DNA of 31,983 bases from a virus (lineage: Duplodnaviria; Caudoviricetes): positions 1 to 31,983 of the IMG/VR virus record IMGVR_UViG_3300036713_000115, one strand, 5' to 3'. The notes under the pieces are model-generated. The model was not told the origin of the DNA and did no database searches. It saw nothing but the letters and a program-made list of their open reading frames with translations. Position numbers and translations under genes: made by a program. Of this stretch, positions 2,341 to 23,934 are shown in pieces. Numbering within the stretch: the first letter of the stretch is position 1; every line of letters begins with the position of its first letter.

Positions 2341-2665
2341 TGTGTAGCCTTATAAAATATTCAGCATCGACTAACGCGAGAGGCTTTGTTCTATTTCTCT
2401 TTATTATAACCAAAGGTTCGTAAGTTTTGCAGTTTTCTTGCGATTGTTCGTATGCTTTCCATACATTAACTGACTCTTGGTTTTTGCACTCTACTGAGTA
2501 AGGAAATTGTTTTCTTGATTGAACACCCATAATAATATCTTCACCATTAGAACCCATGGGTCTTGATTCTAAATCTTCAGGATCGAAACCAAGTAATTCA
2601 ACGAGTTTATCTACAACCCATTGTTGTAAAGCTCTGCCTTTAGCTTTGGCAGATTGTGGTTTCAT
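2300..2665 (-). CDS. Holliday junction resolvase-like PD-(D/E)XK nuclease
   Basis: SAKAKGR.LQ, G..G.DI, VECKNQE, PLVIIKRNR motifs. Confidence 0.8.
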   Translation of the reverse strand: MKPQSAKAKGRALQQWVVDKLVELLGFDPEDLESRPMGSNGEDIIMGVQSRKQFPYSVECKNQESVNVWKAYEQSQENCKTYEPLVIIKRNRTKPLALVDAEYFIRLHNDRQTNKTSNEDS

Positions 2666-2802
2666 TTATGTTTTTTAATTACAGGAAGTTCTGCTGTAAG
2701 TGACGCGCCTTTGTGTTTTACAAACTTACCAGTATGTTTCATAAGTTTATAAGTCTTACCATCTTTCATAAAGTGATAGCCTTTAGGTGCTTTTACTTTC
2801 AT
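2662..2802 (-). CDS. Small basic protein, 46 aa (MKVKAPKGYHFMK...)
   Basis: Translated by hand; start and stop overlap both neighbours. Confidence 0.7.
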   Translation of the reverse strand: MKVKAPKGYHFMKDGKTYKLMKHTGKFVKHKGASLTAELPVIKKHK

Positions 2803-2915
2803 TACTTTTTCTTTTTCTTTTGTAACTTTTTAAAGTCAGCAGCAGTAATTTTATTTCTTGGCTTTGCGACTTTAGCTAATTTTTTTTGCTTTGGTGAATA
2901 CTTGCTGAAAGGCAT
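2802..2915 (-). CDS. Small basic protein, 37 aa (MPFSKYSPKQKKLAK...ITAADFKKL)
   Basis: Translated by hand; TAATG coupling to next gene. Confidence 0.7.
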   Translation of the reverse strand: MPFSKYSPKQKKLAKVAKPRNKITAADFKKLQKKKKK

Positions 2916-2916
2916 A

Positions 2917-2994
2917 TTACTTTCCTTTTTTCTTAGGTTTTGTTTTTTTCTTTTTAGGTTTCATTGCTGGTTTACCATATCCATATCCTGGCAT
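2917..2994 (-). CDS. Very small Lys-rich protein, 25 aa (MPGYGYGKPAMKPKKKKTKPKKKGK)
   Basis: Translated by hand; AAGGAG SD upstream. Confidence 0.65.
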   Translation of the reverse strand: MPGYGYGKPAMKPKKKKTKPKKKGK

Positions 2995-2996
2995 AA

Positions 2997-3092
2997 CTAT
3001 TCTCCTTGTTGTATTTTTAAAAACATTTTATCAGCCTTTTTTTGTAAAGACCATTCTAAATATTTGGTTAATAAATCTTTTAATAATCTCAC
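2997..3092 (-). CDS. Small protein, 31 aa (GTG start, RLLKDLLTKYLEWSLQKK...)
   Basis: GTGA overlap with upstream stop; fills the gap. Confidence 0.5.
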   Translation of the reverse strand: MRLLKDLLTKYLEWSLQKKADKMFLKIQQGE

Positions 3093-3355
3093 TTCTTTTT
3101 AATTATAGTTTTAACATTGGTGGGCTTACCACCTACGCCTTGTGGCTTTGCTCGTTTTCTTGTAACTGCACTTTTCTTTTGTGAAGCAGTCATTCTTTTA
3201 GCTTTTGAATCTGGCACGCATTTAGGATATTTTCTTTTAGATCCTTTAGCAGATTTTCTACCGCATTTTTCATAGCTTCCATCTTTCTTTTTAGAACCTA
3301 TGTCAACCCAGTTCTCTTTAAACCATTTAGCTAAACCTTCAGTATCTCTAGGCAT
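3089..3355 (-). CDS. Basic conserved phage protein (DUF5872-like C-terminal half)
   Basis: GL.KWFKE.WVD, CGR, YPKCVP motifs. Confidence 0.65.
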   Translation of the reverse strand: MPRDTEGLAKWFKENWVDIGSKKKDGSYEKCGRKSAKGSKRKYPKCVPDSKAKRMTASQKKSAVTRKRAKPQGVGGKPTNVKTIIKKK

Positions 3356-3509
3356 TTTTATATTTGCCGCCTTTCTTTTTGTATTCTCTTACAAGCCATG
3401 CGTTAGCATACGCGCTTGGATATACATCAAACTTTCTTTTAGCGGCAGCTTTCACGCTTGCGTATAGGGCTGGGTTTGTTGGAACTGGTCCTTTCTTTTT
3501 TGCTACCAT
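3348..3509 (-). CDS. Basic conserved phage protein, 53 aa (DUF5872-like N-terminal half)
   Basis: Translated by hand: PTNPALYASVKAAAKRKFDVYPSAYANAWLVREYKKKGGKY. Confidence 0.75.
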   Translation of the reverse strand: MVAKKKGPVPTNPALYASVKAAAKRKFDVYPSAYANAWLVREYKKKGGKYKNA

Positions 3510-3754
3510 TTTTTACAACTCCAATATCTTGCTGATAATTTATCTGGGGGATTGGTATCACACTTATGTCTAGCGCGAAAAGATTTTCTTCTTGCTGGTT
3601 GGTCTTTTTTAATTGTCATTTTAGGATCACCAAATCTAACAAGTTTTACTTGGTCATCTTTTTTAGCTAAAACAGCAAACTTTTTAGATTTACCTGGTGT
3701 TCGTTTTGGTTTGTTGTAACCGCTAAACCTTTCGCCTCTATATGTTATTGCCAT
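3503..3754 (-). CDS. Basic conserved phage protein (FGD...RRKSFRARH.C...SARYWS family)
   Basis: 83 aa ORF, GAGGT SD; motif widespread in environmental viruses. Confidence 0.75.
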   Translation of the reverse strand: MAITYRGERFSGYNKPKRTPGKSKKFAVLAKKDDQVKLVRFGDPKMTIKKDQPARRKSFRARHKCDTNPPDKLSARYWSCKKW

Positions 3755-3813
3755 AAAATACCTCGGTTATAAGTATAATTTATATTAAATTAAAAATATA
3801 GTACAATGGATTT
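3755..3813. promoter_or_regulatory. AT-rich divergent promoter region
   Basis: + strand TACAAT 3802-3807, 6 nt before ATG 3814 (leaderless-type geometry); - strand TATACT 3772-3777 ahead of gene 3754. Confidence 0.45.
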
Positions 3814-4041
3814 ATGGCGAATCAAATTAAATATTTTGAATGGAATAAAGGACCTGCAATTATAAAACCATCTAAACCTGGTCATGTTAAAGGTTTATTT
3901 TTATCACCAACAACTAATAAATGGACTCCTGCTAATGTTATGCAAGTTGGAGACTTTTTTGATAACGGCGATATGATAAATAAAGATGATTTTCAAGAAA
4001 GGTTTGGAATAATCGGTAGAGACTTACCGAGCGTTATTTAA
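3814..4041 (+). CDS. Candidate immunity/antitoxin of the adjacent alarmone synthetase
   Basis: 75 aa; the only credible + strand gene in a 9.5 kb minus-strand block; overlaps the SAS stop by 8 nt. Confidence 0.55.
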   Translation: MANQIKYFEWNKGPAIIKPSKPGHVKGLFLSPTTNKWTPANVMQVGDFFDNGDMINKDDFQERFGIIGRDLPSVI

Positions 4042-5014
4042 TAGTTACTACCGCATCTAAGAAACTTTCATCCATTTCTTTTCTAGCTTCATTAAAGAAT
4101 TTTTTTTGAATGTTGATTAACTCTTCTTCTTTTTTAATTATGTCTACAGGTATTTCTGTAGCATCTGGATTTTTTTTAAAATAAGTTTCTCTGATAGATC
4201 TTTGTTTTGTGTAAAATGGGTGTGCTTTTGCAGAAGCATCTGCCATGGGTTTAGATATTAATTGCACTTCACCGACTATTTTTTCTCCTGTTACTGGAGA
4301 CTTATAAGCAACATTAACATTTCTAGCTTGAAAACCAGAAGATTTAATTAATTTTTCACCTTCATCTAAAACATCATATTTCTGTTTTAACTGTGCAACA
4401 ACATCATCTGCATTTTTTGGATTATTTACATATATTCTTGTTCTTACAGGGTCTGTAATCTCACTTACTTTTTTTCCTCTAATCTGTTTATCAAGAATAC
4501 TTGGCATACTTTTTATTTCCACATCAAACTGTCTCTCACCTTTTTGTATATATTTTGGCGCTTTTTCTAAACCAAGGTTTTTAGATATATCAGTTATTTC
4601 TTTTTGAAAGCCTGGATTTAATCTTTTTGCTGATCTATAAAGTTGTTGTGGCGTTTGAGACCACCCTTGCGTTCTATCAGTAAACCTTTTTTCTGCTAGC
4701 TGTTTGTTTTTAAATAATGGTGTGTAAAGATATTCTGGTTTTAATAAACTTTTTGTTACTCTCGCTGGCGCAAAAGCGGTTAATGCAATATCTAAAGGTG
4801 TTTCTGGAACAAAAAAATCTCTTACACCTCTACCTAGTCTTTGTATGTTAGATATTACAGGATCACGGCTTGGTTGACTTCTTTGTGACTGTATAGCCTC
4901 ATAAGGACTCATAGGAGTAATAGAACCTACATCTGGAGTTGTAGAACCAACAACACCTCTTGGTTGCTTGGTTAATAACAAACGCTGTAATTCTTGCAAA
5001 GACTCTGGTGTCAT
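4034..5014 (-). CDS. RelA/SpoT-family small alarmone synthetase domain protein with unrelated N-terminal extension
   Basis: K168S..S...K176, D188..R.R, SGF...N.N, GE249VQ251L, AH265..Y motifs in correct order. Confidence 0.85.
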   Translation of the reverse strand: MTPESLQELQRLLLTKQPRGVVGSTTPDVGSITPMSPYEAIQSQRSQPSRDPVISNIQRLGRGVRDFFVPETPLDIALTAFAPARVTKSLLKPEYLYTPLFKNKQLAEKRFTDRTQGWSQTPQQLYRSAKRLNPGFQKEITDISKNLGLEKAPKYIQKGERQFDVEIKSMPSILDKQIRGKKVSEITDPVRTRIYVNNPKNADDVVAQLKQKYDVLDEGEKLIKSSGFQARNVNVAYKSPVTGEKIVGEVQLISKPMADASAKAHPFYTKQRSIRETYFKKNPDATEIPVDIIKKEEELINIQKKFFNEARKEMDESFLDAVVTIK

Positions 5015-5139
5015 TTCTTCTTCCTAGGTCTACCTCTTTTTTTAACAACTGGTGCTGGTGTCATAAAACTATCAAACCAGTTTAAAAATTTATGTATCGT
5101 TTCTTTTAACCATACCCAAAACTTTCTTATGTATTTCAT
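5011..5139 (-). CDS. 42 aa protein: Trp-rich amphipathic helix plus AT-hook
   Basis: Translated by hand: MKYIRKFWVWLKETIHKFLNWFDSFMTPAPVVKKRGRPRKKK; coupled to both neighbours. Confidence 0.7.
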   Translation of the reverse strand: MKYIRKFWVWLKETIHKFLNWFDSFMTPAPVVKKRGRPRKKK

Positions 5140-5318
5140 TAGTGTAACTCCTTCTGTTCAATAAATATAATTTCTGAATCTGAATTAACTTCACCACCAG
5201 ACATAAGCGACATAATTCTTAATGCATCATCTTTGGTTTTTGCTTTTATATCTTTACCAACGTAAACCATATCGCCTTCTAACACTTCTAAATTAAATAT
5301 TTTGTGTTGGTGGTACAT
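5139..5318 (-). CDS. Hypothetical protein (~59 aa)
   Basis: Probable start at MYHQHK near portal end; longer ORF call overlaps portal. Confidence 0.5.
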   Translation of the reverse strand: MYHQHKIFNLEVLEGDMVYVGKDIKAKTKDDALRIMSLMSGGEVNSDSEIIFIEQKELH

Positions 5319-7449
5319 TGCCTGTAAATAATCCTTGAGCTTGATCTTTTGCATTTTGTCTAATATTTTCTCTGTCTCGCTCCATGATAGCATTTATTTC
5401 TGCAATGTTAATTTGTGCGCCATACTTAGCCTGTAGCTCTAAAGCTTTAATTCTAAGTTGTGCCTCTTCGATATCTCTTTGTCTATCATCATCCATGATA
5501 ATTTTCATTCTATCTGTCTCTGCATCAATGATAGCTTTCTGAGCTTGTACCTGTGCCTTCTGAGCTTCAGCCTGTGCTAATAAAGCAGCTGGGTCTGGCT
5601 GTGGTGGCTGTTCAGGTTGTGGTGGCATAGGCGGAACTTCTGTATTCACAAAGGATTGTGCATCTTGGAAGCCTGCTAACTCAATCATTCTAGTCAAAGT
5701 GTTAGCATATTGTTGCATTGACACTAGAGGATTCTGTGGCCCTAGTAATTGCAATATTTGCTCTTGTTTTCCTGCAACTTGAGTTAAGACTTGGAACTTT
5801 TCTTGGTCAGATGATTTAGATATAGCTACATTGACTACCATATCCTTATCTGAATCCCAATATCTTGGATCTACAGGTATAAATTTACCGTTTAATCTAA
5901 AGACATCTTGTGCATTTTGGTGTTTGATTACCAAGTTATTTACTGTTTTAAACATAGCTTTTAGGCCACCTTCAGCAAAATGTCTGCATATAAGCTCTAT
6001 TCTGCCTTGCGCACCACTCATAGTAGCTGTTACAGCTGCGGAAGTTGTAGATTGTAAAGCTTCTGCATTTAATCCTGCGCTTGCTTTAGATACACCAGTT
6101 CTGTTTTCTTTTGCTTCATCTAAATATCCTAGGACTGGGAAAGCTTCTTTACCAACAAAAGGTACAGCAAATGGTTGTACCATTCCTGGCGCTCTCATTC
6201 TAATTGGTTGACCGATATCTGTATTAAGTACATCGTCTATGTTTACTTGACCCTCAACAACTCCCATTCTTGGGAAGATTGAATGACCAAGAGAATCCAA
6301 GGTATCACGCATGATTTGTGATTTAGCAGATTGAATTGGTTTTAGATAATCAGCAGGACATGAGCCAATTGCTGTGTGTGGCTCTGGGTCAGGACAGAAC
6401 ATACATATTGGTAATTCATCCCATGGTTCTACGTTTAGAACTTCTAAGCCATTACCTGCTGTGCAAACTCTGATTCGCTCATCAATACCATCACCATCAA
6501 AGTCATAGTATAGGTAATGCTCTACATATAAAACATCTTTACCACCAGCATCGTTTCTATCTGGGTACACCATGTTATCAAATGGGTTTCTTGCTTCTTG
6601 TTCTTCGTAGCTTTCTGGGTCAAGTGCGCTACCGCCATAACCTGCATATTGCTCTATCTCTTCTTGGTCGTAACCCATAGCGACTAGGTCGGACACGGAT
6701 TTAATCATTCTGTGTGCGACGTAAGAAGCAGTTTCTATGTCGCGTGCGTGTCTTGAAATTAATATTTCTTCTGGTGGTACTGATTCAATACATACTTGGT
6801 CTTTTGGTTTTAATCTTCTAATCGTTAGGTCGTAACTTGATGGCACTTCCTGAACTACCTCTTCTTGGCTTACAGGGTCAAAAGTAATAATGGTTTCGTT
6901 AGTGACTGATTCTTCTACTACTTCTACATTCTTATCAAGGATTAATGCCTGGTAGGATTGTGGATCTATATTCGTGTATTCGTGCGTGGATGCAGTTACG
7001 CTGTCATCCCAAAAAACTTTAATAAAACCAGTTTTTCTTACTAAAGCATCTTTGAATACATCATATAAAACTTGGAAGCCAGGATTTTTTTCTCTGATTA
7101 TATAATTAATATAATCTGTTTGTTGTTCTGCAAGTTGAATATCCTCTGGTCCTTTAGGTACAAACTCTACAATTTTTTTAGTGCCAAAAAAAGTACGCAT
7201 GATGGATGGCAACATAAACAAAACACTTTCTCGCACATCTGTAGAAACAAACTCTGATTGTAATGAGCTAGTTCCTTCTGGCTCTGTACCAAGGTAATAT
7301 TCTGTTGATTCAGCTCTTTCTGCGCCGACTTGATGTATGAAATCTTTTGCGTCATCCATTTCGGATTTAATCACGCCTACTAAGTCGTTCATATCGCCTT
7401 CTTCTTGTACTGCGGCCATGATTTCTTCTTCTTTATATTTCTTTGCCAT
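5293..7449 (-). CDS. Portal protein (P22/SU10-like, with Gln-rich barrel)
   Basis: 718 aa after terL; EYYLG, S.FVS.DVRE.V, KDAL..KTG..KV.WD, RTGVS motifs, C-terminal coil. Confidence 0.92.
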   Translation of the reverse strand: MAKKYKEEEIMAAVQEEGDMNDLVGVIKSEMDDAKDFIHQVGAERAESTEYYLGTEPEGTSSLQSEFVSTDVRESVLFMLPSIMRTFFGTKKIVEFVPKGPEDIQLAEQQTDYINYIIREKNPGFQVLYDVFKDALVRKTGFIKVFWDDSVTASTHEYTNIDPQSYQALILDKNVEVVEESVTNETIITFDPVSQEEVVQEVPSSYDLTIRRLKPKDQVCIESVPPEEILISRHARDIETASYVAHRMIKSVSDLVAMGYDQEEIEQYAGYGGSALDPESYEEQEARNPFDNMVYPDRNDAGGKDVLYVEHYLYYDFDGDGIDERIRVCTAGNGLEVLNVEPWDELPICMFCPDPEPHTAIGSCPADYLKPIQSAKSQIMRDTLDSLGHSIFPRMGVVEGQVNIDDVLNTDIGQPIRMRAPGMVQPFAVPFVGKEAFPVLGYLDEAKENRTGVSKASAGLNAEALQSTTSAAVTATMSGAQGRIELICRHFAEGGLKAMFKTVNNLVIKHQNAQDVFRLNGKFIPVDPRYWDSDKDMVVNVAISKSSDQEKFQVLTQVAGKQEQILQLLGPQNPLVSMQQYANTLTRMIELAGFQDAQSFVNTEVPPMPPQPEQPPQPDPAALLAQAEAQKAQVQAQKAIIDAETDRMKIIMDDDRQRDIEEAQLRIKALELQAKYGAQINIAEINAIMERDRENIRQNAKDQAQGLFTGNVPPTQNI

Positions 7450-22143: not shown

Positions 22144-23934
22144 TTATCCTATTGGGTAGCCGCCTGAGCCTGGTAGGGTTTGAGGCATATTAATTTGTGG
22201 CGGTTGCTGTGCAGAAAATAAATTACTAAATATTGGTTGTGCTGTATTTAAAAGACCCAAACCAGCTTGGAACTTTTCTAATCCACTAGGATCATATCCA
22301 CCAGTTCTTGTAACTGTTGGTTGCACTCCACTTACACCAGTTGCTAGTAAACCAAGTTGTTGTCCAGGATAAGCTAACGCTCTTTGGAACTCGCCTCTTT
22401 GTGCATCGATTGCTCTTTGTTGTAGTCCTTGCTGTTGTTGTCCTATACCACCTAGCAAACCAAGACTTTGCAATTGACTTGTCTGTAAACCACCTAGCAA
22501 GCCTGCTCTTTGTTGTCTTGCCTGCATCTCTAATTGTGGTTGTGTTAATGCAGCTCTACCAGCAATGTCTAAACCAGCTAACTGTCTTTGTTGTTGTAGC
22601 TGTGCCTGTTGCATACGTCTTTGCTGTCCTAGTTCTGCACCAAAGATACCTGCTTGTTGACCAAGCTGCGCCTGTTGTAAAGCTCTCTGAGCTGCAATGT
22701 CTTGACCTGCAAGACCTGCTTGCTGACCAAATTGAGCTTGTTGTAATGCTCTTTGTTGTTCTAGCTCGGTACCCATTAATCCAGCTTGCTGTTGTAGTTG
22801 AGCTTGTTGCAAGGCTCTTTGTTGTTCTAATTCTGTACCTGTCAACCCAGCCTGTTGCTGTAACTGTGCTTGCTGTAATGCTCGTCTTGACTCGACATCT
22901 TGTCCTGCTAAACCTGCTTGTTGTTGCAGTTGAGCTTGTTGAACTGCTCTTTGTTGCTCTGCTTCAAAACCAGTTAATCCTGCTTGTTGCTGTAACTGAG
23001 CCTGTTGTAGTGCAAGTTGTTGTTCTTGACCAGCACCAAATATACCTAATTGTTGTTGTCTTGCTAGGTCAGCTTGTGCTGCCCTTTGTGCTTGCTCAAA
23101 GCCTGCTTGTCTTAAACCAGCAGCTGTTTTAGCCATTTGTTCTACATAAGGTCTTTGTGATTCAGATTCTATTAATGCAGATCTTGAACCACCGAAAGCA
23201 CCTGCTCTAATTGCTCTATCCTGCGCTCCGCCACGCGCTATATCAGCTTGTCGCTGTATATCCTGCATAGCTGTATCTATAACTTGTTGTTGATATGGAG
23301 ATTGATATGCACCTATGTCTTGACCTAGTAAACCTTGAAATTGTGGTGTAGATACTTGACCAATTTGCGCAGCTGTTGGCCCTACCAATGATTGAATTTG
23401 CGCTCCACCAAAAAGGGGTGATTGTTCTATTCTTGCAGCTGTTGGTCCAGCTACTGAAGTTATTTGTGCAGATGTTGGACCTGCTACAGGACCTATCTGT
23501 GCGCCACCAAAAGTAGGTGTTGCTTGTATTTGTGCCGCACCAGGAGCTTGTGTTGCCTCTATTGTTGGTGCTTCAAAACCAGTGACAGGTTGTATGGTAG
23601 GCTTAAACTGTTCTTGTGCCATACCTTGTAAGGCTTTGGTTGGGTCATAACCCATACCAGATTCAAACATACCTCTAGTAGCTTGAAACTGTCGCAGTTG
23701 ATCTGGAGAAAAACCAGCAACCATTGGTCCTGTGTAAGGTACAAAAGGTTGTTGAGCAATTTGTTGCGACCTACGATATAGGTCTTGTTGCATTGCTTGT
23801 GTTTGCGGATCAACTTGTTGTGTGGTTGTTGTTTGTCCAGCAGCCGAACCTCCGCCACCAGTTAAACTTTTAACTGCGCCTACAGCAGCAGCTGCTTGTC
23901 CTACTCCTGCTATAACTGGTAATGCTTGTGGCAT
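22144..23934 (-). CDS. Gln-rich DNA pilot/ejection protein
   Basis: Y.GP.VAGFS..Q, Y.SPYQQQVID, AGAFGGSR motifs; tandem repeats. Confidence 0.8.
   Translation of the reverse strand: MPQALPVIAGVGQAAAAVGAVKSLTGGGGSAAGQTTTTQQVDPQTQAMQQDLYRRSQQIAQQPFVPYTGPMVAGFSPDQLRQFQATRGMFESGMGYDPTKALQGMAQEQFKPTIQPVTGFEAPTIEATQAPGAAQIQATPTFGGAQIGPVAGPTSAQITSVAGPTAARIEQSPLFGGAQIQSLVGPTAAQIGQVSTPQFQGLLGQDIGAYQSPYQQQVIDTAMQDIQRQADIARGGAQDRAIRAGAFGGSRSALIESESQRPYVEQMAKTAAGLRQAGFEQAQRAAQADLARQQQLGIFGAGQEQQLALQQAQLQQQAGLTGFEAEQQRAVQQAQLQQQAGLAGQDVESRRALQQAQLQQQAGLTGTELEQQRALQQAQLQQQAGLMGTELEQQRALQQAQFGQQAGLAGQDIAAQRALQQAQLGQQAGIFGAELGQQRRMQQAQLQQQRQLAGLDIAGRAALTQPQLEMQARQQRAGLLGGLQTSQLQSLGLLGGIGQQQQGLQQRAIDAQRGEFQRALAYPGQQLGLLATGVSGVQPTVTRTGGYDPSGLEKFQAGLGLLNTAQPIFSNLFSAQQPPQINMPQTLPGSGGYPIG
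22519..23046 (-). repeat. 8 x 66-bp (22-aa) coding tandem repeat
   Basis: G(L/I).G....QQRALQQAQLQQQA, aa 297-472. Confidence 0.85.
23338..23601 (-). repeat. 8 x 33-bp (11-aa) coding tandem repeat
   Basis: Ile every 11 aa from 114 to 191 (AQI...GPTA / P.FGG). Confidence 0.8.

Follow-up and report, generated by a model that had tools for sequence, protein, structure and literature searches.

Why would a marine podophage carry an alarmone synthetase among its late genes, and why do most of its relatives lack it? The locus lies in a window of 31,983 nucleotides, the whole stretch of viral DNA analysed here (IMG/VR record IMGVR_UViG_3300036713_000115, estimated completeness 92%), which encodes SU10-type portal, adaptor and capsid genes by Pfam and PHROG. 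The sequencing runs that match it are mostly marine, estuary and sediment metagenomes, its best cultured portal relatives are less than 48% identical, and a host search of 185,579 genomes returned a single match, an 11-kb contig in a Flavobacteriales bin (L174) that may be mis-binned phage. Contigs from RNA libraries of one run span most of the region and carry no strand or level information. Our answer, to which as a whole we give about even confidence, is that marine SU10-type podophages have an optional, polymorphic effector slot in their late region, that the locus represents one of its alleles, and that this allele encodes a packaged (p)ppApp toxin with an antisense antidote (Table 1).

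Table 1. Features of the effector slot and its borders in the window.
Feature	Position	Strand	Remarks
83-aa basic protein gene, right slot border	3503..3754	-	directly after 42-aa ORF in empty-slot phages
Exchanged cassette: effector domain, immunity gene (predicted) and its promoter (predicted)	3757..4738		replaced as one block in near-identical phages
-10-like hexamer TACAAT; predicted leaderless host-type promoter	3802..3807	+	6 nt before partner ATG
Convergent 75-aa gene; predicted cognate immunity protein (Tis1-like)	3814..4041	+	overlaps synthetase-gene stop by 8 bp
Small alarmone synthetase (RelA/SpoT) domain; exchangeable effector part	4034..4738	-	Pfam, fold, dN/dS
Synthetase-gene ORF, 326 aa	4034-5014	-	ATG start
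Conserved ~92-aa N-terminal carrier module, non-MuF	4739..5014	-	common to 13 C-terminal classes
42-aa ORF, left border of optional slot	5011..5139	-	stop overlaps synthetase-gene start (ATGA)
Small ORF between portal and synthetase gene	5139-5393
SU10-type portal	5293..7449	-	PF23899 E 1.9e-193; phrog_1216

The identity of the enzyme rests on its predicted fold. An initial annotation had read the gene as a RelA/SpoT-type synthetase from a set of motif residues, and all of them (K168, S172, K176, D188, R191, R193, G227-F228, N232, N234, E249-V-Q251, H265 and Y268) are in place in a 326-aa minus-strand ORF. The Pfam RelA_SpoT family (PF04607) matches residues 167-269 with E 4.7e-4 and 20.9 bits, below the 27-bit cut-off, which two homologues about 50% identical exceed at 30 bits. 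In an AlphaFold2 model of the whole protein (mean pLDDT 58, and below 50 for residues 1-108), residues 120-326 are predicted to form a small alarmone synthetase fold, with no hydrolase or regulatory domains. Compared with 48,161 chains, the model drew RelA/SpoT-type synthetases at every rank from 1 to 10 (best Z 13.6, rmsd 3.4, 170 aligned residues), which together with the family match bears out the earlier reading, and Foldseek agreed. The scores were highest for SaEAS (8vx3, Z 13.6), the small synthetases of B. subtilis (6fgk, 13.2; 5dec, 12.8) and S. aureus RelP (6ewz, 12.6), followed by Tas1 (6ox6_A, 11.5, at 20% identity) and CapRel (10.2). Sequence searches of solved structures with the protein and its alignment found no RSH chain, and NCBIfam matched neither this protein nor the 75-aa partner described below. 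The domain has dN/dS of 0.06-0.15 in five pairs, and among 21 distant domains that share 27-50% identity with it, 20-21 retain each of K168, K176, D188, R191, G227, R231, E249 and H265. The Lys, Asp, Arg, Glu and His of the catalytic site in such synthetases are conserved, even at about 30% identity. One protein, P0032, is RelA-type and turns mid-domain into a methyltransferase-like tail; it may be a chimera or an assembly artefact.

The gene stands in the portal/terminase neighbourhood, where it begins 279 nt past the portal stop. It had been described as translationally coupled just after portal. The ATGA coupling is there, but it joins the gene to the 42-aa ORF, and two small ORFs separate it from portal. 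As had also been proposed, no MuF, hydrolase or tyrosine integrase domain is visible by Pfam in this record of estimated 92% completeness: MuF matched neither the synthetase protein nor 36 other window proteins, and PF04233 was found in none of five related genomes; the window scan gave no hydrolase; and the tyrosine integrase PF00589 is absent from the window and from the complete RelA-type genome G001, and present in one of the five related genomes. Between the slot and the lysis genes (2662-3754, minus strand) lies a run of tiny Lys/Arg-rich ORFs of 25-88 aa, two with DUF5872 matches, which vary highly among relatives and are possibly internal DNA-binding virion proteins. Two repeat proteins on the same strand have no family match, one of 596 aa, rich in Gln, Ala and Gly, adjoining ejection-like genes (22144-23934), and one of 352 aa, rich in Pro and Asp (301-1359).

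The part of the protein that precedes the synthetase proved to be a module of its own. A Pro/Gln/Ser-rich N-terminus of about 120 aa had been noted; the enrichment holds (29% P+Q+S in residues 1-90, compared with 17% in 121-326), but the conserved module is shorter, at about 92 aa. Twenty-four of 53 homologues align to the first ~90 aa only, with coverage of 23-30% in most. Behind this carrier we found at least 13 classes of C-terminus in a set of 115 sequences, duplicates included, made up of 54 database proteins and 61 locus rows taken from viral and metagenome contigs; nine loci repeating an already included contig were left out. Those that can be named are RelA/SpoT, zeta (E 3e-16), PBECR5 (E 5e-21), GNAT-like (a weak match) and ART-PolyVal (up to 55.8 bits, one class above the cut-off and one below); one further class matches phrog_2579, and the others are unnamed. 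The suggestion of a different, non-MuF carrier is upheld: the same N-terminus is joined to other C-terminal domains, in 13 classes, and shows no MuF by Pfam. Carriers do not sort by cargo. In a quick tree of 87 carriers, in which many forks are open, the nearest row to the window is a zeta allele, 95% identical, and by the starred branches both RelA and zeta need four or more changes apiece. The layout is that of a polymorphic toxin, a constant N-terminus before a variable effector C-terminus, with a sharp DNA breakpoint and mixing in the tree.

The carrier has no Pfam or PHROG family match, and its profile matches no other protein of the window. Atlas scores for PT-TG (0.80), the P22 ejection protein gp16 (0.79) and MafB (0.78) all fell under the 0.9 line, and these candidates were set aside; for the distant carriers treated below, Pfam PT-TG was not found in 14 proteins, and "pre-toxin-like" is a label given by eye. 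The module can occur in longer fusions. At L044:30-1541 an 80-aa basic domain (phrog_14910) is followed by the carrier and an unnamed C-terminus, and among the distant relatives treated below, forms of 557-604 aa (L176, L179, L182, L185, L191 and L199) have an extra domain between their own carrier and the synthetase, so that cargoes can stack.

Exchange of the C-terminus can be followed in the DNA. Two zeta-type contigs (L026 and L027) align with the window at 95-96% identity as far as nucleotide +276 of the gene and resume at 97-98% from +1259, which places the exchanged block at about 3757-4738. The slot itself is optional: in the best 80 of 454 portal relatives it is empty in 62, holds a carrier gene in 11 and an unrelated 301-aa gene in one, and is too short to judge in six. 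The carrier is therefore not an essential head protein. The RelA allele occupies the slot in four of these 80 (L105, L106, L136 and L158), and one marine run contained a contig without the region at a depth of 80, compared with 9 for the RelA allele, contig depth being a rough measure. The unrelated gene (L130:4715-5620) has no Pfam or PHROG match.

Within the exchanged block, the initial annotation had overlooked a second gene, the convergent 75-aa partner, and its linkage to the synthetase is strict. It accompanies all 17 RelA alleles and none of 28 others, counted over the 45 scored of 50 distinct locus proteins (five had too little downstream DNA); because these relatives are not independent, a Fisher value exaggerates the association. 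The gene has dN/dS of 0.03-0.14. A profile search gave 54 matches, some 44 of which are small proteins of much the same length, and a wider search of viral contigs gave 27 loci, in every one of which the partner is antisense to a RelA-type domain. In 19 of these 27 the partner is nested wholly in a read-through tail of the synthetase frame, and in eight it is convergent, one of them on a short frame. The neighbouring enzymes (21 distinct domains) are the distant relatives whose conserved residues are given above.

These distant pairs appear to have carriers of their own. Profile comparison gave no link between the window carrier and two distant carrier groups (probabilities 0.1-16%), and the L080-L067 carrier link consists of a 19-aa N-terminal stretch only. 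The pairs are also found beside virion genes, before portal in L193 and before tail-like genes in L091 and L176-L191. At the 19 nested loci (L175-L191 and L199-L201) a partner of ~70-85 aa lies fully antisense in a synthetase read-through tail of ~100 aa, a case of two-strand coding in which the promoter falls at or near the end of the tail. Directly upstream of the synthetase gene at L091:1692-2486, L176-L191 and L199 is a serine recombinase of ~265 aa (phrog_95/phrog_125), which could be an integrase or a cargo-shuffling invertase.

The partner also seems to have its own promoter. Among 25 distinct upstream regions, 18 have a -10-like box that precedes the ATG by 4-9 nt (6-7 nt in practice), as against a mean of 5.6 and a maximum of 14 of 25 in shuffles; in several box-less cases a box, by eye, precedes a GTG or an earlier ATG instead. 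Such spacing suggests that the partner is transcribed as a leaderless mRNA from a host-type promoter of its own. A hairpin at 4013-4030 was discarded as chance level (one found, 0.8 expected).

Other cargoes differ in this respect. Zeta alleles have a conserved overlapping acidic ORF, and in most other classes the next gene follows directly; the lack of such a partner implies that many alleles may be host-modifying rather than lethal. In the zeta loci L018, L025, L026, L027, L048 and L058 a short acidic peptide is encoded in a second frame that overlaps the end of the zeta gene, in a 95-nt gap region. It shows synonymous changes and is conserved in 6/6 loci checked, a candidate same-strand zeta antitoxin.

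We predict that the 75-aa protein is the cognate immunity protein of the synthetase toxin, and its model weakly resembles Tis1, which gives immunity to a (p)ppApp toxin. A language-model atlas search pointed weakly to Tis1_ImmP (score 0.82, the family on 11% of the cluster). The partner model (pLDDT 87) then placed Tis1 (6ox6_B) at the top of 48,161 chains, a weak match at Z 4.6, rmsd 3.5, 62/76 residues and 11% identity, with the runner-up at Z 4.2; it has value because Tis1 was the protein that the independent atlas lead had predicted. Other searches did not return it: Pfam Tis1_ImmP matched none of 11 + 44 members of the partner family nor the window, Foldseek of the model had no match at E <= 0.001 in the PDB or among viral models, with Tis1 missing from its list, and two partner alignments searched against the sequences of solved structures turned up no Tis1 chain. 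In the literature, Tis1-like proteins neutralise (pp)pApp makers and pZFD antitoxins neutralise tRNA-targeting toxSAS (PMC11782079), and tis1-like genes follow Apk2 genes (PMC10083569).

The product of the enzyme had been sought in its motifs, where a D..R and Asn-for-His pattern was thought to point to (p)ppApp makers. The Asn part of this argument fails across the clade, since position 232 is Lys in 20/21 distant domains and Gly in seven of 45 close homologues, with Asn in 36 of the latter. The Apk2 signature is RYT in syn2, GxN in syn3 and YH in syn4, as opposed to AVR, SxH and IR, and swapping these motifs leaves specificity unswitched (PMC12226406). The window has RTR, ARN and LI. Its Arg and Asn match the Apk signature and the remainder differs, syn4 being neither the Apk2 YH nor the RSH IR of that account (PMC12226406). 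R191, at the Apk2 Arg position of syn2, is kept in 21/21 distant domains; their syn3 reads G[FY]xDRKxN (R231 21/21, N234 20/21, D at 230 20/21, K at 232 20/21), unlike Apk2, and the syn4 Gln (Q251) is kept in 5/21, again unlike Apk2. The fold does not single out Tas1 either, whose score (Z 11.5) is no better than those of (p)ppGpp makers and the bifunctional SaEAS (Z 12.6-13.6). The Tis1-like partner is a better clue, still weak, and mainly on its account we lean slightly towards (p)ppApp, made from ATP, as the product.

The same toxin-immunity pair might instead use an acceptor other than ATP/ADP and pyrophosphorylate tRNA, GDP/GTP or another 3'-OH, such as that of a defence signal. We regard this as somewhat unlikely. 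The acceptor-side motifs are specific to the clade (R231, D230, K232 and N234, with Q251 in 5/21 only), fold scores fail to separate Tas1 from RelP/RelQ/SaEAS or CapRel, and motif swaps are not predictive of specificity (PMC12226406). Against it, the partner is like Tis1 and not like pZFD, and Tis1-like inhibitors go with (pp)pApp makers (PMC11782079). The Arg at the Apk2 syn2 position (R191, 21/21) argues in the same direction.

Residue F228 occupies what we take to be the Tyr position of RSH enzymes, going by the known RSH motif and by the alignment of the 21 distant domains, 11 of which naturally have Phe there. A Tyr-to-Phe change at the matching position impairs FaRel2 (PMC11782079). If F228 weakens activity, the protein could be an auxiliary enzyme that adjusts the alarmone levels of the host without being toxic, with the small gene as its regulator, and solo RelA/SpoT genes do exist in cultured myoviruses. 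Those solo enzymes, however, are ~30% identical, have GYxGSxH motifs and lack the carrier, and here zeta, ART and RNase domains can take the place of the synthetase domain, which is never found without its partner; we consider an auxiliary role very improbable. In Paraglaciecola phage GD1 (L092, 2177-3716), a solo RelA/SpoT gene is followed by a 91-aa gene and by one for a 136-aa HD-motif protein also annotated as RelA/SpoT family, a row that resembles a synthetase-immunity-hydrolase triplet.

How might a packaged (p)ppApp toxin with its antidote work? The fusion toxin would be made late, from the portal operon, and the small gene would be read by host polymerase from its own leaderless promoter. 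An antidote with a host-read promoter should be present before late toxin synthesis and again soon after DNA enters the next cell. The enzyme would be directed into the head by the carrier, in the way supposed for MuF, and once injected it would briefly drain host ATP, blunting defence or a competing phage, until its binding by the antidote ends the drain. Packaging is the step on which this depends, and we judge it somewhat probable because MuF/portal fusions and polyvalent proteins have the same set of cargoes, the gene is coupled into a virion operon, and the pairs occur beside virion genes in three contexts. A repertoire of RelA/SpoT, zeta, ART, GNAT and PBECR domains has been tied to MuF/portal fusions and to virion-delivered polyvalent proteins (PMC5512222). 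Counting against packaging are the carrier's want of homology to known head proteins and the many cargoes that have no partner gene.

Should the toxin stay in the producing cell, the pair would be a toxin-antitoxin system of the infected cell or lysogen, serving abortive infection or the exclusion of superinfecting phages, a role described for PhRel of phage Phrann (PMC7229694), and the N-terminus a shared translation or localisation leader. The optional gene and a host-type antidote promoter, which suits a prophage state, would fit, and lysogeny is possible given the tyrosine integrase in one of five related genomes and the serine recombinase beside many distant copies. Yet the toxin is co-oriented with and coupled into the late operon rather than part of a bicistronic TA operon, the same leader bears ART, PBECR5, zeta and GNAT-like domains without partner genes, and the complete RelA-type genome G001 lacks a PF00589 integrase. 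On these grounds we think a non-packaged system unlikely.

The packaged toxin and its antidote could also serve the element itself. Enzyme loaded in trans into all particles of a co-infection would leave only antidote-bearing genomes to survive the next infection, and cells that destroy the incoming DNA would be killed as well. Late toxin synthesis with a separately promoted, leaderless antidote is consistent with such a selfish element, as are the locking of antidote to toxin by overlap or nesting (27/27 distant and 17/17 near cases) and a cassette that moves between near-identical genomes and is missing from most. Protection of the producer cell explains the same layout simply, however, and the RelA allele is in the minority, at four of the best 80 portal relatives; we find this quite improbable. 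A toxin-antidote drive that poisons rival genomes from a mixed infection and DNA-destroying hosts, in which the clade's distinct acceptor site may also yield a product outside the known alarmones, is rather unlikely in our estimate.

The value of the locus lies partly in the natural experiment it offers, since marine phages that are nearly identical either leave the slot empty or fill it with one carrier bearing RelA, zeta, ART, RNase or GNAT-like cargo. Also added are a divergent clade of alarmone synthetases, together with its partner family, and an unusual locking of antidote to toxin, antisense and, in 19/27 distant loci, nested completely within the toxin frame. PMC10083569 treats it as an open question whether particles carry the polymorphic toxins of phages and what purpose these have, and the catalogue of export domains of such enzymes in PMC12691689 names MuF alone for phages. 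In the full-text literature we searched, mostly outside subscription journals, we found no account of the carrier, of an immunity gene nested antisense in that of a phage synthetase, or of a drive based on a packaged toxin and its antidote; the supplements of PMC5512222 and PMC7229694 may list members.

Several known systems share parts of this design. As in the phage polyvalent proteins (PMC5512222), RelA/SpoT, zeta, ART, GNAT and PBECR cargoes occur in a late-gene context, but here one cargo, sometimes two, sits on a short carrier and is swapped as an allele of one slot. The toxSAS FaRel, FaRel2, PhRel, PhRel2 and CapRel (PMC7229694 and PMC11782079) likewise have a single synthetase domain and a small neighbouring partner; the pair here differs in its polymorphic carrier, its virion-operon location and the lack of a co-oriented bicistron. 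Tas1/Apk1-Tis1 of Pseudomonas aeruginosa (PDB 6ox6) is similar in enzyme fold (Z 11.5) and ranks first for the partner model (Z 4.6), with no PAAR/T6SS carrier here and no sequence-level match to either chain.

The closest parallel is with the MuF toxins, Apk2-IapK and BcTis1-Aph1 (PMC5576092, PMC10083569 and PMC12226406), which also lie in the phage head region and have a constant N-terminus and a variable C-terminus; like the Apk2 systems, the locus pairs an alarmone-synthetase variant with a small immunity gene, here predicted to be Tis1-like. In contrast to them, it has an N-terminus of just 92 aa with no MuF domain, belongs to a podophage with an SU10-type portal, and is missing from most relatives. 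Its partner is antisense or nested, with its own predicted promoter, instead of co-oriented downstream; the window has no Aph1 hydrolase, and the syn3 and syn4 motifs differ. The system thus appears to work like MuF/Apk2 polymorphic toxin-immunity while departing from it in its defining features, the MuF domain, co-oriented immunity and the motifs, and it extends polymorphic-toxin systems beyond MuF to short carriers in podophages.
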